DNA of 45,646 nt from Deltaproteobacteria bacterium (GTDB lineage Bacteria > Desulfobacterota > Desulfobacteria > Desulfobacterales > UBA11574), in contig JAFCZV010000008.1 of the NCBI GenBank assembly GCA_019314155.1, forward strand, positions 1 to 45,646, given 5' to 3'. Below are positions 1,600 to 45,345 of this stretch, one piece after another. The position numbers and the translations under genes were made by a program. Within the stretch, counting starts at the first letter, position 1. Every line of letters starts with the position of its first letter. The notes beneath the pieces were generated by a model. That model was not told the origin of the DNA. It searched no databases and was given only the letters and a program-made list of their open reading frames with translations.

Positions 1600-2634
1600 C
1601 TATTTTAAAACTTTTGGAAATACATCTAGAGTATAATTTATATCATCGGAAGTAACATGATAATGGGTGACGGCTCTTAAGCTATCCAGACTGGTGGGAA
1701 GCACCCGGATGCCCTGGTCGCCGAGTTTTTCTGATAGGATCCGCGACGTAATCCCTTTGCGCGTTGCTTGGAAATAAACGATATTGGTCTTCACATCATC
1801 GGGATCAATTGACAGACCTTTGATATCGGCCAAGCCTTCTGCCAATTTCCGGGCGTTTTCATGATCATCTTCCAAACGATCCACCATTTCCGTCAAAGAG
1901 ACGATACCAGCGGCTGCCAGTATTCCCGACTGGCGCATGCCGCCTCCCAACACCTTGCGAACCCGTCGAGCTTTTGAAATAAACGCCCGGCTCCCGGAAA
2001 CTACCGAACCCACCGGCGCAGCCAGCCCTTTGCTCATACAAATATTGACCGAATCTGCTTCGGCAACCAGTTCCCGTGCTTCAACACCCAAAGCGACTGC
2101 GGCATTAAAAAGCCGGGCGCCGTCAACATGTACTTTCAGGCCGTAACGGCGGGCCAACTTTCCCACGGAATGCATGTAAGCAGCATCCAGGGGACTTCCA
2201 TTACATCGGTTATGGGTGTTTTCAAGAACGATCAGCCGTGTTGTCGGAAAGTGAATGTCGTCCGATCGAATAGCCGCTTCTATTTGGTTGAGCGCTATCT
2301 TGCCGTCAGGTTGGTTGGCTACAGTGCGTGGATGTATGCCGCCCAAAGCAGATGAACCTCCCTGCTCATAGAAAAAAAGATGGGATTGATCGCCAAGAAT
2401 TACTTCGTTACCCCGCCCTCATTGCGTCATCTGGCTCACCATGTTTGCCATGGTTCCACTGGGCACAAACAGTGCAGATTCTTTCCCCAGCCTTTTTGCA
2501 ACCATTTCTTCTAATAGATTCACCGTCGGGTCTTCACCGAACACATCGTCTCCGACGCTCGCCTCCGACATAGCCTGTCGCATGAGAGGGGTCGGCTGAG
2601 TGAGTGTATCCGATCGCAGATCTACAATACGCAT
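1600..2634 (-). pseudogene. ltaE: Low-specificity L-threonine aldolase interrupted by a single in-frame TGA (2419..2421). Either a nonsense pseudogene or a recoded gene.
   Basis: ORFs 2419..2634 ([14 protein letters not shown]...[13 protein letters not shown]) and 1600..2346 are in the same frame. The 24 codons between them read GRGNEVILGDQSHLFFYEQGGSSA, which is normal threonine aldolase sequence. The PLP-lysine motif SKGLAAPVGS is present. Confidence 0.7.
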
Positions 2635-2781
2635 TTGTATCTCCTTAAATATATATGAAAATAATAACGTGAAACATATTTAAAGAAGATTTTCAAGGCA
2701 TATTCTTGAGCATCTTTTAAGGTCAAAGTTAAAAAAACCAGCGTCTGGTTATTTTTTAACCTTTAGGGGTCGTTGAACCAC

Positions 2782-5595: not shown

Positions 5596-5754
5596 ATTGC
5601 TAAAAAAATAAGACTGTCTATAATATTGTCAAGCCGGAAATGGGAATTTTAGGTTATGGGATTTAGAGTGCCCAAGAACAGCACAAAAAATGAGAAGGAT
5701 AAAAATTTGGTTGTGCACCCTCTATCGAATCTTTGCTGAAAAATAATAAGCCAA

Positions 5755-5870
5755 AAAATTGACCGGGATCGATCCACGACACAGACTGCATTACTTATCG
5801 CTGCTTCCTTCCGGACCTGACGAGGTTCGTAACCGTCTGTTGCGCGGCGGCCGGTCAGGATGACTTATAG
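5755..5870 (-). ncRNA. ffs: Signal recognition particle RNA (small 4.5S type). Ends are approximate.
   Basis: The minus strand reads ...GACCGGCCGCCGCGCAACAGACGG...CGUCAGGUCCGGAAGGAAGCAGC...CAGUCUGUGUCGUGGAUCGAUCCCGGUC. It contains the conserved domain IV motif GUCAGGUCCGGAAGGAAGCAGC. The 5' GACCGG pairs with the 3' CCGGUC, and a T-run follows. Confidence 0.8.
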
Positions 5871-6312
5871 GCTCCCAGGTTCAAACCCTTTAGAGGGAAT
5901 TCAGCCCCGCATGAAGCGGATTTCGGGAATAGGGCACCGCTAACTCCCCACCTAGCACAACCATGACTATGAATATAATCGATAATAAAAAAATTTCAAG
6001 TTATAAAATCGCGTCGCGTTTTTATAACCATGTGGCTTCGCCGCTCTAAGAATTGAATTCTTAATGATTCCAATACCCCATCATACCCAAATTGGCATCA
6101 CCTAGCATGCGAGATATCGGGTGCTTAAGCACAAGTTCCTGTCGGTTGGAAAGAGATATGCGCCGTCGTGGAGCGTCTGTCTCAATCGGGATTCAAATGC
6201 CTATGCCCTGCCGGTGTTTTTTATTGACAGGGAAGAATCAGCGTATCATAATTAAAGCTCTTGAAATCTATACAATTTTTTCAAAACCCAAGTAATTAAT
6301 AGTCACAGGATC

Positions 6313-30426: not shown

Positions 30427-31208
30427 AATTGGGGCGAAGCCACTAAGTTCAAGATTGGCGATCGGCCGGTTACCTTGTCAAGGGCAACCATACCCTTTCG
30501 TTTGAGGGCGGTTATGTATCGAAAGACCCTTTCTGAGGGAATGGCCAGGTCCCGGGCCAGGTCCTTGACTGACCGGGCACCTTCCTTGAGTCTGGCAAGA
30601 ATTTCCTGGACCTCCATTTCTTCCACTATGATCATATCAATGGCACGGTTAAATTCGTGTTCCGTGAAGATTTCACCGTACTTGTTGCCTGACTCCATAA
30701 ATTCGGTTTGCTTGCCGATGATCCACCGCATCTTTTCGCCGGCCAGCACCGCCTCGGCTGCTTCCAGCTTCTTAAAGATTTCAGGAGCCTGCAGGGTGTC
30801 TCTTCCACCTCCAATAGGTCCTAAACCGCGAATCTTCTCATTAAACTTGGTAACCAGTTCTACAAAGACGGCGGCTTCGCCCGAAGAGCATTGCCGAAAA
30901 GCAAGACGATTTTCATTGACACCAATATATTCGAAAAGTCGGCGAGTCATGTCTATTTTAATCTTGGCCTGGACATTCCCGGTGATATAATGGCAGTCGC
31001 CGAAATGGCACCCCACTACCAAAAGACCGTCAAGTCCTTTTTTGAAGGCCTTGGCTACGGTCGCCGGGTCCATCCGACCGGAACACATGATTCGAACAGT
31101 CTTAATCTCCGGGGTATATTGTAGTCTGGAAACTCCAGCTAAATCAGCGGCGGAGTATCCTCACCATGTACAGCAAAACGCGAGAATTTTGGGAACGAAT
31201 TGGGTCAA
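30420..31208 (-). CDS. mvhD: MvhD-like [2Fe-2S] protein with selenocysteine (TGA 31161..31163) and a C-terminal winged-helix-like domain
   Basis: TTG start at 31208 behind RBS GAGGAGG. The hand-translated N-terminus is [40 protein letters not shown], joined in frame to the ORF-track product MCSGR...VVGCHFGDCHY.... The C-terminal 60 aa (ILARLKEGARSVKDLARDLAIPSERVFRYITALKRKGMV) look like a wHTH. Confidence 0.8.
31122..31141 (-). promoter_or_regulatory. Candidate SECIS hairpin for TGA 31161..31163
   Basis: mRNA UAG(C)CUGGA-GUU-UCCAG(A)CUA, beginning 19 nt 3' of the UGA. Confidence 0.5.
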
Positions 31209-31227
31209 AGGAACCTCCTCAAAAAAA

Positions 31228-31367
31228 TTGTTGATTTATGATTGTTGATTGTCGATTGAAAAAAAAGTACACTTACCGACTTTAATCTACGTTTTTTTCT
31301 TACTTGATTTTCTGCTTTGTGCTGTTCTTCAATAAATCACCAATCATCAATCATACATCATCAATCC
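31228..31367. repeat. Repeat-armed inverted repeat (7-nt period GATTGnT)
   Basis: Arm 31228..31258 (ttgttgatttatgattgttgattgtcgattg) against arm 31330..31367 (caataaatcaccaatcatcaatcatacatcatcaatcc). 25 of 31 positions are complementary and the loop is about 71 nt. The distal arm overlaps the stop codon at 31361. Confidence 0.85.
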
Positions 31368-33046
31368 AAAAACGCGTCAATCTGAGCTTCAAGTTGGTTG
31401 TTTGTATAGGAGTTAATGGTTAAGGCGTGCTGATAGCAGGTAGCTGCGCACACCCCGCACCCCTTGCAGGCCACATCAATCACGTGAACCTTTTTCCCTT
31501 TTTCCGTGTTGCTAATCTCAAGAGCACTATAAGGACAAAGCGCGACGCAAAGGCTGCAGCCCCGGCAGGCGTCTTCATCCGCCAATACAGAAATAATCGG
31601 CTCTACAACAATCGAACCCTTAGACATGGGAATCGAGGCTCGAGATGCCGCACCTAAACCCTGGGCAATCACTTCTCGAATATTGGCCGGAAAACGGGCG
31701 CTGCCGCAAAGGTAGATGCCGTCGGTAGCAAAATCGAGCGGTTTTAACTTAACATGACCTTCCAGAAAAAATCCGTTTTCATCAACCGGCACCCTGAGAA
31801 GCTGAGAACTCACATTGGCATCCTCTTGGGCAACCAGCGGTGTGGAAAGGACCACTATATCCGCAGTCAAAGTCATTTCGCGGCCAAGTAGAGAATGGTA
31901 AACTCGCACCTGATCGGATTCCACCTGGGGAGGCCGGGCAGAATCATAATGGATGTACCGGACTCCCCTGGCTTTGGAATCCCGGAACATCTCTTCGTTT
32001 TCGACACCGTACATCTGCATATCCCGATAGAGAATGGAAACTCCGGCATCCGGGATTTGATCCTTGATCAATATAGCGTTCTTGACGGCTATCTGGCAGC
32101 AGATCCGCGAACAGTAGGGTCTCTCTTGATTGCGACTTCCTACGCACTGGACGATAACAACGTTCTTGACATCTGTATCCAAACCTTCTTTGAGAAGCTG
32201 CTCCATCTCAAGCTGGGTGATAACGCGCCGGCCGTCATAGCCGTAAAGGCCCTCGGGAACAAAGGCACGGCTACCAGTGGCCACTATGATAACCCCAATG
32301 TCAAATTTCTTTTTGCCGGATTCGGTCTCGACCTCGACGTCGAATTTGCCGATAAACCCCTGGACGGCGGTAACGCGTGCCCCGGTGAAGACGGTAATCT
32401 TGTCATGTTGCATGACTTCCCTTATCTTCTCCTCAATCAGCTCACCCGCATCTGTCATGGCGGGTCCAAGCTTATGCAGCCGGTTCAGCATGCCGCCTAA
32501 TCCCTCTTCCTTTTCAACCAGCACCACTTCATATCCACGCCTGGCAAGGGCCGCAGAGGCTGTCAGGCCGGCGATTCCTCCTCCAATAACAAGAGCCCGG
32601 GCACAAACTTCGGACATAATGGACTCCTGGGGTTTTAATAAAGCCGCCTTGGCAACTCCCATACGGATAAGATCCTTTGCTTTGGCGGTTCCATCCACCT
32701 GCTGTTGCATATGCACCCAGGAGCATTGATCGCGGATATTGACCATCTCGAAAAGATAAGGATTCAGCCCGGCCTCTTCACAGGAACTTCGAAAAAGAGG
32801 TTCATGGGTTCTCGGCGTACAGGAAGCAACCACAACGCGATTGAGGTTTTGCTCTTTGATTCCCTTTTTAATTTCGTTAATGCCGCCTTCAGAACACGAA
32901 TAAAGATTCCTCTGTACAAACGTTACATAGGGAATCGTCCGGGTATAATCGTCAAGCGCTTCCATATCCAGATAGCCGGCAATGTTGGATCCGCAATGGC
33001 AAAGAAATACTCCGATCCTGATGTCATTGTCTTTATTCTCAGGCAA
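31361..33046 (-). CDS. HdrA-like flavoprotein (N-terminal Fe-S domain, FAD domain, C-terminal 2x[4Fe-4S] ferredoxin)
   Basis: 561-aa [65 protein letters not shown]...CKGCGVCAATC. The TTG start lies behind RBS AAGGAGAAGG and overlaps the upstream stop by 8 nt. Confidence 0.85.
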   Translation of the reverse strand: MPENKDNDIRIGVFLCHCGSNIAGYLDMEALDDYTRTIPYVTFVQRNLYSCSEGGINEIKKGIKEQNLNRVVVASCTPRTHEPLFRSSCEEAGLNPYLFEMVNIRDQCSWVHMQQQVDGTAKAKDLIRMGVAKAALLKPQESIMSEVCARALVIGGGIAGLTASAALARRGYEVVLVEKEEGLGGMLNRLHKLGPAMTDAGELIEEKIREVMQHDKITVFTGARVTAVQGFIGKFDVEVETESGKKKFDIGVIIVATGSRAFVPEGLYGYDGRRVITQLEMEQLLKEGLDTDVKNVVIVQCVGSRNQERPYCSRICCQIAVKNAILIKDQIPDAGVSILYRDMQMYGVENEEMFRDSKARGVRYIHYDSARPPQVESDQVRVYHSLLGREMTLTADIVVLSTPLVAQEDANVSSQLLRVPVDENGFFLEGHVKLKPLDFATDGIYLCGSARFPANIREVIAQGLGAASRASIPMSKGSIVVEPIISVLADEDACRGCSLCVALCPYSALEISNTEKGKKVHVIDVACKGCGVCAATCYQHALTINSYTNNQLEAQIDAFLD

Positions 33047-34589
33047 CGGCCTTCTCCTTTTCTGACTTTAATTGAATTGCGATTTCAGCGGCACGTTCGG
33101 CAGCGCTTGAAGCCTGGGCCACAGATTCCGGTACATCCATGGGCGACTCTGCACAACCGCAGACAAAAACTCCCGGCACTGTGGTGTCGACCGGAGAGAG
33201 GGGGCTCGTCTTTATGAAGTTGTACTTATCCAGTGCGACTTCAAAAACTTTGGCCAGCTTAATAATTCCCTTGGTTGGCGCACAGGCGGTAGCCAGGATC
33301 ACCATGTCGAAATCCCGGCTTTCCACTTGCCGCTTGTGCGTGTCTTCGTAAATCACGACTGGATTGTTAGCAGGACCCTCCATGATCTCACTGACCCTCC
33401 CGCGGACATAGGAAATGTTCGAGTTGTTGCCGCCTCGTATTTTATACTCTTCAAATCCTTTGCTTACCGCCCGGATATCCATGCCGAAGATGGTGGAGGT
33501 CGTCTCCGGCTCGTGCTCGTGGGCGATTACGGCCTCCTTGATGGAGTGCATGCAGCAGTAACCCGAGCAAAACGGATAAAACCGGAAATCACGGGAACCC
33601 ACGCACTGGACAAAGGCCAGTTTCTTGGCGACGGTAAAGCCCTCGGCCTTCTTTTTCAAGGCTTCCAGGGGTTCCATGATCGCCAGATGGGTAGCATACT
33701 TATCAGCCCACTTCTTGCGGCCCTGTTCGTCCCGGTCGTCCTGATATTGGCCTTGCCGGTATTGATTATAAAATTGAGCGGAAGTTTGGTCATATTTTTT
33801 TTCAAGTTTCTCGAGCGTTCGCTTAGATTTTTTTAAATTCTTTTCAAGTGCTGCAATCTCGGCTTCAACGGCTCGATCCGAGGGACGATCCAGATGTCCT
33901 TCTGTGGGACCGCTGGCGCTCAAGAGTCTTTCGAACTCCATTGCCGTAACCACGTTGGGGATTTCCCGGTACCGGTATTCGGGAATCTGTGACGGATCGA
34001 AAACGTCGTATCCGACGGCAATGATTATGGCACCTACATCGAGGGTTATGATCATGTCTTCCTGATCAAAATTTATGGCGTCGGCCTGACAGGCTTTTTT
34101 ACAGATCCCACATTTTTTGCCTTTAAGCTGACGACAGAAATCAGGGTCAATGGTATGGGTCGAGGGTATGCCCTGGGCAAAGTAGCTGTAAATTGCACTG
34201 CGACTGCCCAGACCTTCATTGAAGGCATCCGATACCTTGGTCGGGCATTTTTCAGCACAGGCGCCGCAGCCGGTACATTTGTCCTCCTCGACATAGCGTT
34301 TTTTCCTACGCACGGTGACATTGAAGTCTCCCGCCAGACCTTCTACCTTCTCGACTTCGCTGTAGGCCAGAAGAGCTATATTAGGATGTCGACCGACATC
34401 CAGCATCTTGGGCGAGAGGATTCAGATGGCACAGTCGTTGGTAGGGAAGGTTTTATCCAGCTGTGCCATCTTGCCGCCGATGCTGGGCAGTTTTTCCACC
34501 AGGTGGACGTTGACACCCATGTCTGCAAGGTCCAGAGATGCCTGGATTCCAGCAATCCCTCCGCCTATAACCAGTACGTCTTGACTCAT
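33039..34589 (-). CDS. hdrA: HdrA-like FAD/Fe-S protein with selenocysteine (TGA 34422..34424)
   Basis: ATG at 34589. Hand translation: [61 protein letters not shown], joined in frame to the ORF-track product MLDVGRHPN.... The TGA falls at the second Cys of the HdrA FPTNDCxxC motif. Confidence 0.88.
34384..34401 (-). promoter_or_regulatory. Candidate SECIS hairpin for TGA 34422..34424
   Basis: mRNA GGAUGUC-GGUC-GACAUCC: a perfect 7-bp stem with a GGUC loop, starting 20 nt 3' of the UGA. Confidence 0.65.
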
Positions 34590-34607
34590 AATCTGTGTCC
34601 TTATTTT

Positions 34608-34740
34608 AAGTGACTAAAGTGAGCTAAAGTTATAAGTGAGCTAAGGTTGTGGAACTCGCCTTCGGCGATGTCAATGTTATAATTAAAATAGATAGAATAC
34701 CTTAACTTTAGGCACTTCAAACCTTAGGCACTTCAAACTT
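34608..34740. repeat. Repeat-armed inverted repeat (about 13-16-nt unit AAGTGAGCTAAAGTT)
   Basis: Arm 34608..34648 (aagtgactaaagtgagctaaagttataagtgagctaaggtt) against arm 34699..34740 (accttaactttaggcacttcaaaccttaggcacttcaaactt). The centre contains a GCC-TTCG-GGC mini-hairpin. Confidence 0.8.
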
Positions 34741-34745
34741 TTCAG

Positions 34746-35873
34746 TTACTCTGTTTTCAGGCAATCGGTAACCAGGTCATACAAATCTGTGATCTCTATT
34801 TCCAGATCAAAAGCTGCTTTTGCACACCGCAAGTGAATCTGGCATTTGGGGCAGGCCGTTACTAAGGTGCCGGCACCGGTGTCGCTTGCTTCACTAAGGC
34901 GTTGCAGCTGGATGTCTTTGGAACAGTTGGAACAGTTCATCCAGCCGGAAGTTCCGCAGCAGACACCGTTTTCTCTGGAACGGGGCATTTCTTTGAGTTC
35001 AATTCCTGGGATAGCTTCCAGAAGTCTGCGGGGTGCATCGTAGACACCTGCCATCCTGCCAAGCCGGCAGGGATCATGATAGGTCACCACTTCTGCTTTG
35101 GATTCCGATAGCTGAATGATACCCGAACTCAGTTTGTCTGCCAGAAAATCAAGAATGTGGACCGGTTCAAAATCGAGCTTTCCAAAATACTTGGGATAAT
35201 AATCTTTAAAGGTATGATACCCTTCCGGGCAGCTGAAAATCACCTGCTTGGCACCTGAAGAACGGATCATATCAAGATTCCAGCGAGCAAGTTGCTTGAA
35301 CGTGTCTTCGTTGCCGTTCCAAAGCGCATCATGGCCGCAACACCGTTCATCATTACTGACCACCGGCTCCACCCCGCAGGCGTTTATAATTTTCAGCACA
35401 TTCCGGGCCCCTTGAATTGATCCGGCATTGATATTCCGAAAAATAACATCAAAATAAGGCCTGCATCCCACAAAATAAAAAACATCGCCCGTTTCTTTGG
35501 TTTTCCCATCCTCGACCCAAAAAGTGCGGTTTTGCTGAACATCCTTGGTCTGGATGGACATAATAGCCTGCAGCATCCCATGGTGAGCCGGAACGCCGTC
35601 AAAACCCAGCAAATGGGCTTCATCACGCATCAGGCGAATGAATTCAGGAAAATTTATGTCGGCCGGACAACGGACACTGCACTGGGCGCAGGTAAGGCAG
35701 CTCCAGATAGTATCGTCTGAAAACTCCTCCAGTTCATAAAGAGAGCGCTCAATAATCTGCCTGGGTGAAAATTCGGGGAAAATCCTGGAAACCGGACAGC
35801 TTCCGGTACATACCCCGCAATCAAGACAGTAATAGGTCTTCGTAGCGTTAACCATTTCTACGATCGTATTCAT
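34746..35873 (-). CDS. HdrD-like Fe-S oxidoreductase (HdrC-type 2x[4Fe-4S] fused to HdrB-type CCG domains)
   Basis: 375-aa ORF: CLDCGVCTGSCP, CLTCAQCSVRCP, then CCG-type motifs (ERCCGHD, HDPC, VCCGTSG, TACPKC). Confidence 0.85.
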   Translation of the reverse strand: MNTIVEMVNATKTYYCLDCGVCTGSCPVSRIFPEFSPRQIIERSLYELEEFSDDTIWSCLTCAQCSVRCPADINFPEFIRLMRDEAHLLGFDGVPAHHGMLQAIMSIQTKDVQQNRTFWVEDGKTKETGDVFYFVGCRPYFDVIFRNINAGSIQGARNVLKIINACGVEPVVSNDERCCGHDALWNGNEDTFKQLARWNLDMIRSSGAKQVIFSCPEGYHTFKDYYPKYFGKLDFEPVHILDFLADKLSSGIIQLSESKAEVVTYHDPCRLGRMAGVYDAPRRLLEAIPGIELKEMPRSRENGVCCGTSGWMNCSNCSKDIQLQRLSEASDTGAGTLVTACPKCQIHLRCAKAAFDLEIEITDLYDLVTDCLKTE

Positions 35874-35975
35874 GCTAACCCCTTTGGTTTTTATTTTGCA
35901 GTCGTTCAGGGTTGCTTTTCTATTGTTAACCTTTACTAACCCCGAACCTTGAACCTTTGAACGGTTATTTTTTTA

Positions 35976-36395
35976 TCAGGCCGCCTTTTTTAAGATGGAT
36001 GGTCCCAAAGATTTAATCTGCTCAGTAAAGTTTCTGGCAACCTCAGCAAAACGCGTTCCTTCTGCCGATGAAATCCATTCCAGGCGCAGTCTCCCAGATT
36101 CAATTCCAAGTATACTGACCAGCTCCTGGGTCATTTGGAACATCTTTTCGGCCTTTATATTACCATCCAGGTAATGGCAGTCGCCCATGTGTCATCCAGC
36201 TACCAGGACACCATCGGCACCCAATTGCAGGGCCTTTAAGATGAAATTGGGGTTCACCCGGCCTGAACACATTACGCGAATGATGCGCATGTTGGACGGA
36301 TATTGAAGACGGCTAACGCCTGCCAGGTCGGCAGCCGAATAGGCACACCAGTTACAGGCAAACGTAATGATCTCTGGATTGAATTCTTCAGCCAT
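35976..36395 (-). CDS. mvhD: MvhD-like [2Fe-2S] protein with selenocysteine (TGA 36192..36194)
   Basis: ORFs 36192..36395 and 35976..36188 are in one frame: ...[23 protein letters not shown]...[21 protein letters not shown].... The TGA replaces the first Cys of the MvhD GCHxGDCHY motif. Confidence 0.85.
36159..36175 (-). promoter_or_regulatory. Candidate SECIS hairpin for TGA 36192..36194
   Basis: mRNA AUUACC-UGGAU-GGUAAU: a perfect 6-bp stem starting 16 nt 3' of the UGA. Confidence 0.55.
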
Positions 36396-36449
36396 TAAGT
36401 AAATCCTCCCGGATCTGGTTGATTCGTTAATTGGTAAAATGGTTAATTG

Positions 36450-39400
36450 TCAATTAAAAGCGGCCTCCACCATCGTTAGCACCTGCTGGTCATCAAAATG
36501 GAAAATAGAAGCCGCACCGGTGGGACAGGCAACAGCACATGAGCCGCATCCCGTACACATGGCCTGGTTTACTTCACAGAGAATACGGTCTTCATGAAAG
36601 TCAATGGCCTGATAAGGGCAGGCCTCCAGACACTGCCGGCATCCCCTGCAGAACTGTGCATTAATATCAGAGACGATGGCATTGCCCAGGACCTTGTCCT
36701 TGGACAGCAGCGTAGCCGCTCGTGAAGCGGCTCCCAGACCTTGAGCTACGGCTTCGTCGACAGGTTTGGGCGCATGGGCCAGGCCGCAGACAAACACCCC
36801 TTTGGTGGCAAAATCTATGGGCTGGAGTTTGACATGGGCTTCCACAAAAAAGCCATCTTCATTCACCGGCACCTTGAACAATTGAGCAATGGGATTTTCC
36901 TGCGGTGCCACAATCGCAGTGGCCAATACCAGCATATCCGGTTTTATCTCGATCTCGCGCTGCAGCACATAGCTGGTGCATCTAACATTAAGACCGTTTT
37001 GATCTTTGGAAACGGTTAAACCTTTGTCAAAGTCATAACGAATAAAGACTACGCCTTTGGCTCGGGCCTCACGGTACAGCTCCTCCCGCAATCCATAGGT
37101 TCGCATATCCCTGTAGATAATGAAGACATCCATCTCGGGTTTTGACTCTTTTAATTTGAGCGCACTTTTGACAGAGTGAGTGCAGCACACCTTGGAGCAG
37201 TACGGCCTTTCTTTGATTCGTGAGCCGACACATTGTATAAAGACCGCCGAATCAGTTTCATTTAGAGGCAAACTATTATCGATAAATTTTCGATCCAATT
37301 CCAAAGCGGTCAGAACACGCGGATCTTCACCGTATAAATATTCATCCGGTTTTAACTCTACAGCACCTGTGGCAATAATCGCCACTCCGTGCTCGATTAC
37401 CTGCTCTTTTCCCGCATTTTCAACGGTGGTTTGAAAATTACCCACAAAGCCGCCCACTTTTTTTACTTGGGTGTTTGTCAGGATATTGATGTTTTGATCG
37501 GATTCTATGTCGCTAATAAGCCTTGTTAGATTTTGCTGAACATCTTCGCCCTGCCAGGTTTCATAAAGGTTCACTGCCTGTCCTCCCAGGGCGTCGTTCT
37601 TTTCAATAAGATGGGTGAGATATCCCTGCTGTGCCAGATTCCTTGCCGCGGTAATTCCGGAAAGACCACCGCCGACAACCAGAGCGGACTGGTTCATTAT
37701 TATCTCCGGATCGGCAAGCGGCTGCAACAAGCTCACTTTGGATACTGCCATGCGTACAAGGTCTATAGCCTTTTCAGTGGCTGCGTCTTTTTCGTTGCTG
37801 TGCACCCAGGAACACTGATTGCGAATATTAGCCATTTCAAAGAGATATTTATTGATCCCCGCATTGAGTACGGTTTCCTGAAAGAGAGGTTCATGGGTAC
37901 GCGGGGTGCAGGCGGCTACAACAACGCGATTTAATTTTTGCTCTTTAATAACCTGGGTTATTTGTTCCTGGGTATCCTGACTGCAGCTGAAGAGATTATC
38001 TTCTACAAAAACTACGTTGGGTAAGGTTTTGGCATATTCGACGACATCCGGAACCTCTAAAAAACCGGCAATATTGGTTCCACAACGACAGACAAACACG
38101 CCTATCCGCGGGTGCTCTCCCCGTACATCTAGCTCTTTAGGGGTTGACTTTGTCCGTATCATAGACCCGCGGGACTCGGCCAGCATACTTTCCACCACGG
38201 CAGCAGAGGCGCTCGATTCGATAACGGACTGGGGAATATCTTTGGGGCTTTCAAAGGTGCCGCATACAAAAATACCGGGTTTTGAAGTCTGAACAGGTTC
38301 AAAACTGCTGGTTAGAGCGTGCTGATATTGATCGAGCTCAATTCCCAGCTTTTGGGCCAGGCCCAGCGCTTCCTTTGACACGCCAAAGCCCACCGACAGG
38401 ACTACGATATCAAACGCTTCTTCAATCCGTCGGCCGGTTTCGTCTGTGTAGCTGATAAGCAGATTGCCCGAATCGCCGTCCGGGTGAATCGTGCTGATTT
38501 TTGATTTGACAAAACGCACGCCCACCTCTTTGGCCCGGTTGTAGTAACGCTCAAAATCTTTACCGAGGGTCCGCATATCAATATAAAATATGGTGGTATC
38601 CAGCTCCCCCTTCTGGTGCTCTTTGGCTATAATAGCCTCTTTTATGGAATAGGTACAGCAGACCGCCGAACAGTAAGGCTGTGACCCAGGGTGCATGTCT
38701 CTGGAACCCACGCATTGAATCCAGGCAATTTTCTGCGGCTCTTTGTGATCGGAAGGTCTTACCAGATGCCCGCTGAAAGGTCCGGTTGCCGCAAGAATGC
38801 GCTCAAATTCCAGGCCGGTAACTATATTCGGTGATTTTTTGTAACCATAGGTGTCGTAAGTACCAGGATCATACACCGAGCAACCGGGGGCTATCAGCAC
38901 CGCACCTGCATTTATGGTTAATTCCTTGGGTTGGTCCTCAAAATTAATAGCGTCAGCAGGACAGAATTTCTCACAGGCCTTACATTTGCCCTTTTTAAAA
39001 TAGATGCAATTTTCATCAATGGCGTACTTTAAAGGCACCGCCTGTTCGTATTTCACATAGATCGACTTGCGTTTGGCTAGACCGGCGTCGAATGCGTTTG
39101 TCACCTTTTTGGGACACTTTTCAGCACAAATACCACAGGCAATACATTTATCCATGTCAACATACCGGGGTTGTTGCAAAACCTTGATTTCAAAATTTCC
39201 TTCCTCCCCGGAAATGCTTTGCACTTCTGTCAGGGTCAAAAGCTCAATGTTAAGATGCCGGCCGACCTCGACCAGTTTAGGTGAGATGATTCACATGGAA
39301 CAGTCATTAGTGGGAAAGGTCTTGTCCAGTTGAGCCATGATACCGCCTATGGAGGAGGATCTTTCCACTAGAAAGACATAAAAACCTGAATCGGCAAGAT

Positions 39401-42760: not shown

Positions 42761-43090
42761 TTAACAGCAGCTTTTGCTTTGGTCTTTGGGAGGTTCGTTC
42801 TTGGTTTCGATAACACAGCAACAAGATCCTTCTCTACCCAGAGCTGAATTGATAACAGCCGCGGCACAGCCAACGCCTGCTTGCACGGTGAGCGCTTCTG
42901 TGGGACAATTCATTGCACAAGCCCCACACTCCATGCAGGCATCCCTGTTTTCAATTTGAACTTTCCTGTTGTTCATGCTCAGAACCGCGTGAGGGCATAC
43001 GACGACGCACATGCCGCAACCCGAGCAATTTTTCTCGTTTAATTGTAGCGTTACAACATCTTTTAAATAGATCGTCTTTTCCATTTTCAT
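42761..43090 (-). CDS. hgcB: Mercury methylation ferredoxin HgcB
   Basis: 109-aa ORF with two CX2CX2CX3CP motifs (CSGCGMCVVVCP, CMECGACAMNCP), the internal GVGCAAA Cys and a C-terminal ...SCC. Starts 6 nt after the hgcA stop. Confidence 0.88.
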   Translation of the reverse strand: MKMEKTIYLKDVVTLQLNEKNCSGCGMCVVVCPHAVLSMNNRKVQIENRDACMECGACAMNCPTEALTVQAGVGCAAAVINSALGREGSCCCVIETKNEPPKDQSKSCC

Positions 43091-43096
43091 CGGCCT

Positions 43097-44266
43097 TTAA
43101 GAGACAAATCGCGATCCCACCCAGAGGGTCAATCCAGCCACTCCACCAACAATTTCAAGGGGTACAGCCCATCGCATCTCTTTTTTGATGACACCGGAAA
43201 GAGATGTGTAGGTCGAAGCGCCGGTAAAATTCATGGCAAGATACGCTGCCGCCGCCGGGGCCAGAAAAAACCACGCCAGAATTTCAACATAACCCGGCCA
43301 CATGTTAAGATATCCCGCCCAGAAAACAGTAACGACCAGGGTCGTCCCCAGGCCCATGATCAAACCTTTCAGGGAAAAGGCGCGACCCGGAATCCAGGGC
43401 AGAAGAATCGGCGTTAAAACCGCTCCGGCCACCAGTGCTCCCAGCAGATTGAGCACAGCAAAAAGGCCATCGGTCATTGCACCGTTCCAAAATCCGGAGG
43501 GTGCTCCCAAACCTCCCAGCAGAAAAAAAGCAGGCAGCATCACCAGGGACCATTTTAAAACACTCACGAGTTCGATCGGAATTAGAATGGCCCTTTCCCT
43601 TACAGGAAAGGTCTTGCGCCGCATCCCCGGCGTTGCCTTCAGACCGGCATCCAGAAAAGCCGGCAAATCAGCGGTCCGGATCGGGCCGTAAATCGCTTTG
43701 AAACCGGAGCGTTTTCTAACCGTGTACGCAGCAACACCGGGACCTGCCAGCTGGGGAAGAATGACCTCCCGGTGGGACACCACACGGATCAATCCGCTGA
43801 GTTCGATGCGTTGAACCAATTCATCGGTTCCGAACGTTCCTTTTCCGGCGGCACACCAGACATTTATCCCTTGTGTGTTCAGAACCAGAATCCATGCATT
43901 CCGTCCGGGCAGGGCTTCACGCAATCGGTCAAAACTCATTTTGTAATTGGCCGTAACCAGAACCGGCGACTGATCATCCGGATCTCCAAGCGCATAAAGA
44001 CCGGGATCCACGGTATAATGCATACGGCCCACACCCCAGCGTGCCTTAATGCCGCCCCATCGGTCCGCCCAAACCAACGCGGATGAAATTTTTGGCACAT
44101 CACCCATCGATGTCCGGATCGAGCCGATAATAAACGGCTGTTTCATGTCGGGAAGGCTCACCTGAGCCTTTATCTTCCCGGGTCAGCAACTGCCGGTCAA
44201 AGATTCCGCCGACCCGGTTTCATGACAAGATTGTTTTTTCAAAAAATCAAGGGGTTTCATATCCAT
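43097..44266 (-). CDS. hgcA: Mercury methylation corrinoid protein HgcA, with a proposed N-terminal extension containing selenocysteine (TGA 44183..44185)
   Basis: The cap-helix signature GINVWCAAGKGTFGT is present, followed by a C-terminal domain with about five TM helices. The ORF track starts at GTG 44161. The same frame continues upstream as MDMKPLDFLKKQSCHETGSAESLTGSC-TGA-PGKIKAQ to ATG 44266, with RBS GAGGAA 8 nt upstream. The core HgcA call is very confident; the Sec extension is moderately confident. Confidence 0.85.
44149..44180 (-). promoter_or_regulatory. Candidate SECIS hairpin for the hgcA TGA 44183..44185
   Basis: mRNA UGA-CC-CGGG-AAGAUA-AAGGCUC-AGGU-GAGCCUU-CCCG. A perfect 7-bp upper stem with an AGGU tetraloop begins 12 nt 3' of the UGA. 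A CGGG/CCCG lower stem flanks a 6-nt bulge. Confidence 0.55.
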
Positions 44267-44313
44267 ATATGGTATTCCTCTTCCATTGACAGGCAGCCAA
44301 GTTAGGGCTCCCG

Positions 44314-44517
44314 CTATGAAGCCGGATAATTAATCTCTTTTAGTGTGTCCCTGATCTTTTCCAGAGTGGCCGGGGAATCCCATTCAACGGTAATGCTTTT
44401 ATTTTCCGCATTACCTTCCACTGAACCCACCCCTTCCAGTTCATTCAATTCGTTTTTGATGGACATGACACAATGTCCGCATGAAATATTTGGTATCGAA
44501 AATGTCTCTTGTTCCAT
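44314..44517 (-). CDS. Heavy-metal-associated (HMA, CopZ-like) metallochaperone
   Basis: 67-aa ORF with the ferredoxin-like HMA pattern and metal site SCGHC (FSIPNISCGHCVMSIKNEL). RBS AAGGAGA. Lies 47 nt upstream of the extended hgcA start on the same strand. Confidence 0.87.
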   Translation of the reverse strand: MEQETFSIPNISCGHCVMSIKNELNELEGVGSVEGNAENKSITVEWDSPATLEKIRDTLKEINYPAS

Positions 44518-44820: not shown

Positions 44821-44849
44821 TTGACACATGTGCTACTATGTAGTATATT
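44821..44849 (+). promoter_or_regulatory. Near-consensus sigma70-type promoter with an embedded palindrome
   Basis: TTGACA (44821..44826), a 17-nt spacer, then TATATT (44844..44849). The spacer contains CTAC-tat-GTAG. Lies about 60 nt upstream of the ATG at 44911. Confidence 0.5.
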
Positions 44850-44910
44850 GCGGTTCCATAATCATACAAAATATGATCCTGAACAAAAAAATAGAGATGT
44901 AGACTTTAGC

Positions 44911-45345
44911 ATGAAAAAGATTGCCGTTGGAAACAAAAAGCATATGATGAAAAAGATGGGTGTTGTATTGACTCTGATTTTTACTGTGAGTTTATATGCC
45001 GGCGGTGTATTTGCCGACACGGGTTGCGGGGCTAAATGCTGTAATCAAACGAACCCGATCGGGATGCACCACACCACAGACGAACAGATAAAATCATTGA
45101 TGGATTGCCGTTCCAATATTCCTCAAATCCCTTGTGATTTACAATCAAAACAGGCCGTTGAATTGCCGGAATATGCGTTGGCTGCAGCCGGCAATCATTT
45201 TCCAAACACTGTTGGATTAACCAAGATTTTATCCGACTCCGGTATTGATAATAATGTTTTTAAACTCAATTGTTTTGTTCAAACGGTCTGGGAAAAATCC
45301 CAACCTCCCCCCATATATCTTCAGAAACAATCATTTTTAATCTGA
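44911..45345 (+). CDS. Secreted Cys-rich protein of unknown function, divergent from the HMA-hgcAB genes
   Basis: Signal-peptide-like N-terminus (MKKIAVGNKKHMMKKMGVVLTLIFTVSLYAGGVFA), then DTGCGAKCCNQ... with 7 Cys in the mature part. The start codon is uncertain (44911 or the internal ATGs near 44944). The ORF-track start at 44821 coincides with the promoter and is unlikely. Confidence 0.55.
   Translation: MKKIAVGNKKHMMKKMGVVLTLIFTVSLYAGGVFADTGCGAKCCNQTNPIGMHHTTDEQIKSLMDCRSNIPQIPCDLQSKQAVELPEYALAAAGNHFPNTVGLTKILSDSGIDNNVFKLNCFVQTVWEKSQPPPIYLQKQSFLI

Follow-up and report, generated by a model that had tools for sequence, protein, structure and literature searches.

The hgcA locus and its upstream reading frame

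Contig JAFCZV010000008.1 of the metagenome-assembled genome (MAG) 'Deltaproteobacteria bacterium' was analysed over its entire length of 45,646 bp (hereafter the window). Its minus strand carries hgcA, the gene for the corrinoid methyltransferase HgcA, together with hgcB for its ferredoxin partner, which starts 6 nt past the hgcA stop codon, and a small upstream gene for an HMA-domain protein. Our subject is an in-frame UGA codon close to the 5′ end of hgcA, which the original prediction, made from this DNA, had read as a selenocysteine (Sec) codon directly following a Cys codon. The features of the locus, and those of a second region of the contig that bears on Sec decoding, are collected in Table 1.

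Two shorter gene models exist for this hgcA. The list of open reading frames (ORFs) places HgcA at 43097..44161 (-) with a GTG start, 35 codons shorter than the model proposed here, and the GenBank product MBW2668455.1 covers 43097..44146 (-), starts at ATG 44146 and is truncated at the Sec site to 349 aa. Upstream of both starts, the frame was found as the original prediction described it: it is open from ATG 44266, which has the ribosome-binding site (RBS) GAGGAA 8 nt in front of it, into HgcA, and a single TGA (44185..44183) after a Cys codon is the only interruption. Past this TGA the frame reads PGKIKAQVSLPDMKQPF and, without meeting another stop, joins the ORF that was called from GTG 44161. 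The Cys-Sec dipeptide of the HgcA N-terminal extension would be encoded by TGC-TGA at 44188..44183, and the tryptic peptide expected across the Sec site is QSCHETGSAESLTGSC-U-PGK. We regard both annotated starts, GTG 44161 and ATG 44146, as artefacts that arose because the UGA was treated as a stop.

Table 1. Coordinates of the hgcA region and of the Hdr/Mvh-type region of the window
Feature	Coordinates	Strand	Basis or remark
Full-length hgcA coding sequence	43097..44266	(-)	389 aa + stop, Sec28; NF040863 match
Proposed true hgcA start codon, ATG	44264..44266	(-)	read from sequence
Shine-Dalgarno-like GGAAGAGGAA	44275..44284	(-)	GAGGAA (44280..44275) 8 nt before ATG 44266
N-terminal tail, codons 1-27, MDMKPLDFLKKQSCHETGSAESLTGSC	44186..44266	(-)	last residue Cys27 = TGC 44188..44186
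In-frame UGA, proposed Sec codon, residue 28	44183..44185	(-)	directly after Cys codon
Hairpin of the bacterial Sec insertion sequence (bSECIS) type	44149..44180	(-)	folding, bSECIS criteria, covariation
Hairpin lower stem	44180..44176 with 44153..44149	(-)	RNAfold
Hairpin conserved core stem	44168..44164 with 44159..44155	(-)	RNAfold, alignment
Hairpin apical loop AGGU	44163..44160	(-)	begins 19 nt after UGA
hgcB, ferredoxin partner	42761..43090	(-)	NF040864 117.2 bits, cutoff 99; ends ...KSCC
HMA-domain gene, CopZ/MerP-like, CGHC motif	44314..44517	(-)	Pfam PF00403 HMA 60.7 bits; NCBIfam CopZ-type matches
Hdr/Mvh-type gene cluster with four Sec-type TGAs	31161..39293	(-)	context
HdrA in-frame TGA, TNDCSM-U-IISPK	39293..39291	(-)	CxxU
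MvhD-like in-frame TGA, VLVAG-U-HMGDCHY	36194..36192	(-)	gene ~35976..36374
Second HdrA in-frame TGA, TNDCAI-U-ILSPK	34424..34422	(-)	CxxU
Second FlpD/MvhD in-frame TGA	31163..31161	(-)	Cys at same site in other paralogue

The family assignment is clear. The extended protein (U written as C) matched NCBIfam NF040863 HgcA_corrinoid with 451.7 bits (cutoff 275), residues 57-387 aligning with profile positions 1-324 of 325; the tail therefore lies outside the curated model. The cap-helix motif N(V/I)WCA(A/G)GK is present as NVWCAAGKG, in which Cys138 (codon 43855..43853), at the Co-ligating position of the motif, is the equivalent of Cys93, a residue with a documented role (PMC11588087). The C-terminal half of the protein, where the family has a transmembrane domain of five helices, is hydrophobic and falls within the NF040863 match. 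An AlphaFold2 model of the homologue P0120 (70% identical) has five long helices over residues 209-374, with a predicted local distance difference test (pLDDT) score of ~64-90. Built from a 24-sequence alignment, that model is poor overall (mean pLDDT 50.8, residues 1-208 <50) and is silent on the placement of the tail.

MBW2668455.1 is named 'acetyl-CoA synthase subunit gamma', a CdhD/CFeSP family name, not HgcA. Most metagenomic HgcA homologues carry the same 'acetyl-CoA synthase' style of label.

Conservation of the UGA codon and of a downstream hairpin

The window HgcA was compared with 80 HgcA loci from GTDB species-representative genomes, giving 81 sequences; the loci are 60-93% identical to the window HgcA, come mostly from Desulfobacterales-type MAGs, and were read upstream of the cap-helix motif. 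A TGA stands at the same codon offset in 71 of the 81, 107 codons upstream of the motif (106 in three). In-frame TGA in related hgcA genes, which the original prediction had proposed as a check, was thus seen in 70 of 80 loci, and one further locus (L016) has the same TGC-TGA and hairpin in an assembly with a downstream frameshift. Neither TAA nor TAG was found at this site in any of the 71 sequences. The codon before it is TGC in 46 and TGT in 18, so that Cys precedes the TGA in 64 of 71. An in-frame upstream ATG with no intervening stop is present in 67 of 71; the window and 11 of the loci, 12 sequences in total, have it exactly 27 codons before the TGA, although up to 45 of the 81 nt differ from the window, and the A-G-rich RBS (aagagga/aaggga) upstream of it is kept in close relatives. 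The N-terminal tail is conserved in length and frame and weakly in sequence, as expected for a flexible tail. The 14 codons from the TGA to QPF are conserved as coding.

A protein search showed how general the truncation is: close database homologues are called as 347-353 aa from ~MKQPF/MNQPF, with P0120 the sole exception. This protein (375 aa, 70% identical; its DNA is locus L081) reads ...GSADPCC-DIEANIPLNLPGLD-QPF and represents a Cys-Cys form. Fourteen residues separate its CC from QPF, the same spacing as in the window (C-U-PGKIKAQVSLPDMK-QPF). CC occurs at the aligned site in L064, L072, L076 and P0120, none of which has a TGA, giving Sec/Cys pairs in the homologue alignment. The original prediction had pointed to CC-containing N-terminal tails in other HgcA proteins, and such tails are borne out by the published alignment and by these four sequences. 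Cys-form HgcA proteins (CC, CCC and CCCC tails; published forms PCCGP and CCCGG) have a homologous tail at the same position relative to the domain, and they differ from the window protein in having sulfur at the second position, no TGA, no GGCUC-AGKU-GAGCC hairpin and no conserved KAQ(V/L)SL peptide.

Three loci depart from their relatives in ways that may reflect assembly errors or very recent mutations, at the level of single nucleotides: L016, mentioned above; L030, which has CGC-TGA (Arg-Sec) where its relative L025 has TGC-TGA; and L056, which has TGT-TCA (Cys-Ser), one nt from TGA, and keeps the full hairpin. A change that happened very recently, or a mistake in the assembly, would leave L056 in this state.

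As another possibility, the TGA of the window could itself stem from faulty sequencing or assembly, or the MAG could carry a nonsense mutation there. The contig does have one TGA that looks like such a case, in an aldolase gene (2421..2419; see below). The hgcA TGA, in contrast, recurs at the same codon, and with a conserved hairpin, in 70 independent assemblies at species level. These comparative data refute an artefact or pseudogene, which we consider exceedingly improbable.

A 7-bp stem (AAGGCUC/GAGCCUU) with an AGGU loop, 12 nt 3′ of the TGA and extended by CGGG/CCCG, had been proposed in the original prediction and is present. RNAfold extended the lower stem to 5 bp (CGGGA with UCCCG) and gave an upper stem of 6 bp, the outermost A-U pair joining the lower stem. 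When folded in isolation, the hairpin (44180..44149) had a free energy of -15.2 kcal/mol (z = -3.87), and 1 of 200 shuffled sequences was as stable; within a 61-nt context the signal was weaker (z = -1.72, 14 of 200 shuffles as stable). The published bSECIS model describes a loop of 3-9 nt, an upper stem of 4-16 bp, a distance of 16-37 nt from the UGA and a minimum free energy (MFE) of <= -7.5 kcal/mol, with a G as first or second loop base and, in most cases, a G or U after it. The hgcA hairpin agrees with this model in every respect, having a 4-nt AGGU loop, an upper stem of 6-7 bp, a spacing of 19 nt and the stability given above. Like the bacterial SECIS of the E. coli fdhF type and the bSECISearch consensus, it is a coding-sequence hairpin directly 3′ of the UGA with a small loop containing G then G/U, whereas its primary sequence is unrelated to that of fdhF and its binding by SelB is putative. 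The whole-window Rfam scan gave no family for the hairpin.

Taken by itself, the single window sequence makes a suggestive but not compelling case for Sec, and the alignment adds considerably more. The 48-nt segments from the TGA onward, 65 of them distinct, were aligned without gaps and gave the consensus hairpin GGCUC-AGKU-GAGCC. Pairing in its 5-bp core holds for 324 of the 325 cells, and both-side compensatory changes occur at three of the five core pairs (G-C to A-U, C-G to U-A and U-A to C-G). Over the 7-bp helix, 86.8% of cells are paired, compared with 26-54% once the 3′ partner is shifted 1-3 columns along. Synonymous sites point the same way. The Ala codon in the stem is GCU in 59 and GCC in 3, with a compensating G in each GCC case, and never GCA or GCG. 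The Gln codon that supplies the loop G is CAG in 57 cases, with no CAA, whereas seven codons on, the Gln of QPF is CAG in 47 and CAA in 18; in the Pro codons to either side of the stem, each of the four bases occurs at the third position. By this comparative evidence, the hairpin is under selection at the RNA level. Since synonymous sites in the stem and loop are constrained, the KAQ(V/L)SL peptide (44155..44170 (-) in the window) is largely a footprint of the RNA element, an example of RNA constraint posing as protein-level conservation. Both the KAQVSL residues and the hairpin are lost in all four Cys-Cys forms (L064, L072, L076 and P0120).

The hairpin also bears on whether the upstream frame is a separate ORF, namely a 27-codon leader peptide that ends at the UGA, with HgcA starting at GTG 44161 or ATG 44146 and the hairpin serving translational coupling or regulation. 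Such an arrangement would match the deposited annotation of 349 aa and the calls of all close database homologues, and a GTG or TTG lies 8 codons past the TGA in 61 of the 71 TGA-bearing sequences. The activity of the HgcA of strain ND132 in E. coli lysate, presumably after cloning without the extension (PMC11588087), would also fit. A leader-peptide stop, however, would drift among the three stop codons and among frames and would not swap to Cys, so the conserved TGA does not behave as a leader stop: it is TGA in all 71 sequences, the upstream and main ORFs share one frame throughout, some homologues have a Cys codon in place of the TGA and hence a single continuous ORF, and the codons between TGA and QPF are conserved as coding. 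The proposed downstream starts fare no better. The ATG of 'DMKQPF' is missing from most relatives, which have Leu there, and on reading the sequence we saw no Shine-Dalgarno-like sequence in front of ATG 44146. The first two bases of GTG 44161 end the loop and its third opens the 3′ arm, so that this codon would be sequestered in the hairpin, and the frequent GTG/TTG at this codon follows from the bSECIS loop rule G[G/U]N together with the invariant closing G. We therefore consider a leader peptide highly unlikely.

A related possibility, compatible with Sec at the UGA, is that the gene has two products. With selenium present, the full-length protein would be made; under selenium scarcity, termination at the UGA and re-initiation at the GUG/UUG or AUG would yield a tail-less but competent HgcA, and the isoform ratio would be tuned by selenium supply. 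In bacteria, Sec insertion generally has a low efficiency and depends on selenium, which favours such a scheme, as do the start-capable codon 8 codons beyond the UGA in those 61 sequences and the in vitro activity of the presumably tail-less ND132 enzyme (PMC11588087). In opposition, the SECIS constraints fully explain the GUG/UUG, this codon has no Shine-Dalgarno-like sequence in front of it, and the strong purifying retention of TGA and hairpin favours the full-length protein as the selected product. Dual output is thus unlikely, though less so than a leader peptide.

The frame, the TGA, the neighbouring Cys, the exchange of Sec for Cys and the hairpin are all conserved in the aligned sequences, from which Sec insertion itself is inferred. 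Almost certainly, hgcA starts 35 codons upstream of the annotated start and reads the UGA as Sec beside Cys. In the proposed mechanism, translation would start at ATG 44266, and the mRNA hairpin 44180..44149 would recruit the Sec machinery of bacteria (SelB with Sec-tRNASec), which would recode UGA 44185..44183. The product would be a 389-residue HgcA with vicinal Cys27-Sec28 on a flexible tail, 14 residues before the corrinoid-binding domain.

Sec decoding, published selenoproteins and the possible role of the tail

The contig contains other evidence of Sec decoding. Four further in-frame TGAs in genes of the HdrA and MvhD families (Table 1) had been noted in the original prediction; all are real and lie at known Sec positions, and a 2026 review of prokaryotic selenoproteins includes HdrA and MvhD/VhuD with the motif CxxU. 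From these four Sec-type TGAs on the same contig, the organism probably decodes Sec. The claim that two of the accompanying hairpins have GGUC in the loop held for the second HdrA, where RNAfold recovered it; in the first HdrA, GAGGUC was obtained only by hand pairing and is absent from the MFE structure. The MvhD paralogue with Sec at 31163..31161 has Cys at the Sec site of the other (VVG-C-HFGDCHY).

A TGA at 36452..36450, at the HdrA/MvhD junction, was considered as a fifth Sec site and rejected: it has no hairpin and is followed by an SD-like GGGAGGA and an ATG, and the simplest interpretation is the HdrA stop. It separates a long double HdrA ORF from the MvhD-like ORF, and the archaeal HdrA2 profile NF040770 has both parts fused. 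A genetic code with TGA as a sense codon was also rejected, as TGA clearly ends other genes of the contig (e.g. at 35978 and 33041).

The literature already contains the central idea. A preprint by Haft (bioRxiv 10.1101/2022.07.06.499078) describes most HgcA proteins as selenoproteins with an N-terminal CU motif, on the basis of 20 hgcA genes, among them the founding ones of ND132 and Geobacter, each of which can be extended upstream through one UGA; the P-C-U-G-P pentapeptide is called 'perfectly conserved' (20/20, RefSeq genomes). HgcA is listed in the 2026 review (NF040863, CU), and the HgcAB biochemistry paper (PNAS 2024, PMC11588087) says that some HgcA homologues 'may be selenoproteins', and no more. 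In the main text of the 2008 GOS paper, which the review cites for HgcA, the protein was not found under its old name. The original prediction, which knew of no description of HgcA as a selenoprotein, is corrected by the 2022 preprint and the 2026 review: the idea is published, and the window is a re-discovery in an unannotated genome. What is new here is that the GenBank protein was deposited truncated and that the clade carries C-U-P rather than P-C-U-G-P. The preprint appeared in a journal as Haft & Gwadz 2023, J Bacteriol 205:e0025922.

With the published CU HgcA proteins of Pseudodesulfovibrio mercurii ND132 and Geobacter sulfurreducens, the window protein shares the family, an N-terminal extension via one UGA, the Cys-Sec dipeptide, the database truncation artefact and an adjacent hgcB ending in CC. 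It differs in that its U lies just 14 residues from QPF, the conserved start of the domain. The preprint contains no SECIS analysis for HgcA, server-based SECIS searches having failed (10.1101/2022.07.06.499078), whereas a hairpin is defined here, with covariation and synonymous-site constraint.

Several points weigh against Sec at this UGA or against the generality of the dyad. The window has S-C-U-P-G instead of the published P-C-U-G-P, which is described as invariant, and C-U-P is found in 59 of 71 relatives. Among the 71 TGA-bearing sequences, U is followed by G-P in L036 only (Q-U-G-P, with no Cys before U), and the text of the Haft supplementary alignment obtained by optical character recognition contains PCUGP 22 times and CUP 0 times. 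The uncultured Desulfobacterales-type clade thus appears not to be represented in that alignment, and the published motif therefore covers cultured lineages, not the whole family. Seven of the 71 sequences lack Cys before U and have R, S, Q, L or G instead, so that the dyad is not universal; some of the seven have a Cys a few residues off. As read from these codons, the constant feature is the predicted Sec and not the dyad. Moreover, the 80 loci are related, and counts such as 71 of 81 are not counts of independent events. None of selA, selB, selC and selD was among the scanned ORFs of the 45.6-kb contig, and a tRNA scan of the window gave no tRNA gene, hence no selC there. In the HgcA literature (Haft preprint, PMC11588087), we found no protein-level demonstration of Sec in any HgcA. 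Finally, when the ND132 hgcA construct was expressed in E. coli with HgcB, the lysate was active with or without an N-terminal His tag (PMC11588087). This construct presumably lacks the Sec extension, given the originally annotated start; if it is tail-less, methyl transfer in vitro does not strictly depend on the CU tail.

Set against these points, the Sec reading and its Cys-Sec dyad are supported by the conserved TGA, the Sec/Cys pairs, the covarying bSECIS hairpin and the selenoprotein genes on the same contig. We conclude that UGA 44185..44183 of hgcA very probably encodes Sec.

Mobile tails bearing Cys pairs relay Hg(II) in MerA/NmerA. The Cys-Cys tail of HgcB and the MerA/NmerA tails likewise place adjacent soft ligands on a flexible terminal segment beside a metal-handling site; their likeness to the HgcA tail is a mechanistic analogy alone, without homology, and contact of the tail with Hg or corrinoid is hypothetical. 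Vicinal Cys-Sec, rare among selenoproteins, is shared by SaoL, SaoB and SaoC of the SAO system and by MerT-family selenoproteins, in which CU has been interpreted as a soft-metal or organometal ligand (10.1101/2022.07.06.499078). These proteins differ in having unrelated folds and contexts and a C-terminal or internal motif, as opposed to the N-terminal tail of the corrinoid methyltransferase HgcA. By analogy, the thiol/selenol pair of HgcA may be a soft-metal ligand that serves in Hg(II) capture, in hand-over to the methyl-corrinoid or in CH3Hg+ handling. Such a role would parallel that of the C-terminal Cys94/Cys95 of HgcB, which are important for methylation (PMC11588087).

A more specific proposal is a mercury relay, in which the HMA chaperone would deliver Hg(II) to the Cys-Sec of the tail and the tail would present it to the methyl-corrinoid alongside the Cys-Cys of HgcB. 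We regard this relay as rather doubtful. If it were true, Hg, or a similar soft metal, would be an evolved and not an accidental substrate, and selenium supply would directly control the methylation capacity of these uncultured methylators. More generally, if the selenol handles Hg, selenium availability would be linked to methylmercury production.

HgcA is the marker used worldwide for finding mercury methylators, and its databases and hidden Markov models rest on N-terminally truncated proteins; recognising the Sec tail corrects the hgcA gene model. The P-C-U-G-P signature misses a large uncultured Desulfobacterales-related clade that uses C-U-P, and the compact, well-defined SECIS of this clade is a possible test system for recoding. 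As the central idea is already in the literature, the added value of this analysis is confirmatory and incremental.

Neighbouring genes and other features of the contig

The HMA-domain gene encodes 67 aa and precedes hgcA by 47 nt, with both genes on the minus strand. It holds this place next to hgcA in 18 of the 80 related GTDB loci, which belong without exception to the closest clade (L001-L011, L013, L016, L017, L020, L021, L043 and L075). It is probably an operon partner of hgcA, and its product may be a metal chaperone partner of HgcAB.

HgcB (GVGU) is entered as a selenoprotein in the 2026 review. In the clade of the window, the GVGC position of HgcB could be located in 74 loci; it is Cys in every one, and no Sec form was found among them.

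Divergent from the copZ-like gene and hgcAB is an ORF of 174 aa at 44821..45345 (+). Its N-terminal segment is hydrophobic, it contains a Cys-rich stretch (DTGCGAKCCNQTNPIGMHH), and it had no Pfam match.

The aldolase gene mentioned above, of the GntG/low-specificity threonine aldolase type, lies at 1603..2679 (-) and matches NF041359 over its full length with 524.5 bits. Its in-frame TGA (2421..2419) reads SQMTQ-TGA-GRGNEVILGDQSH. Each of the listed 120 best-scoring homologues runs the full length, and five of them (79-91% identical) read SQMTHCGRGDE, with Cys at the TGA site. A new selenoprotein is unlikely here, as no SECIS-like hairpin follows the TGA and the listed homologues are full-length. 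Most likely, this TGA is a TGC-to-TGA nonsense mutation or an assembly error.

The sole Rfam match on the contig is a bacterial large signal recognition particle RNA at 5711..5960 (-) (RF01854, 142.9 bits).

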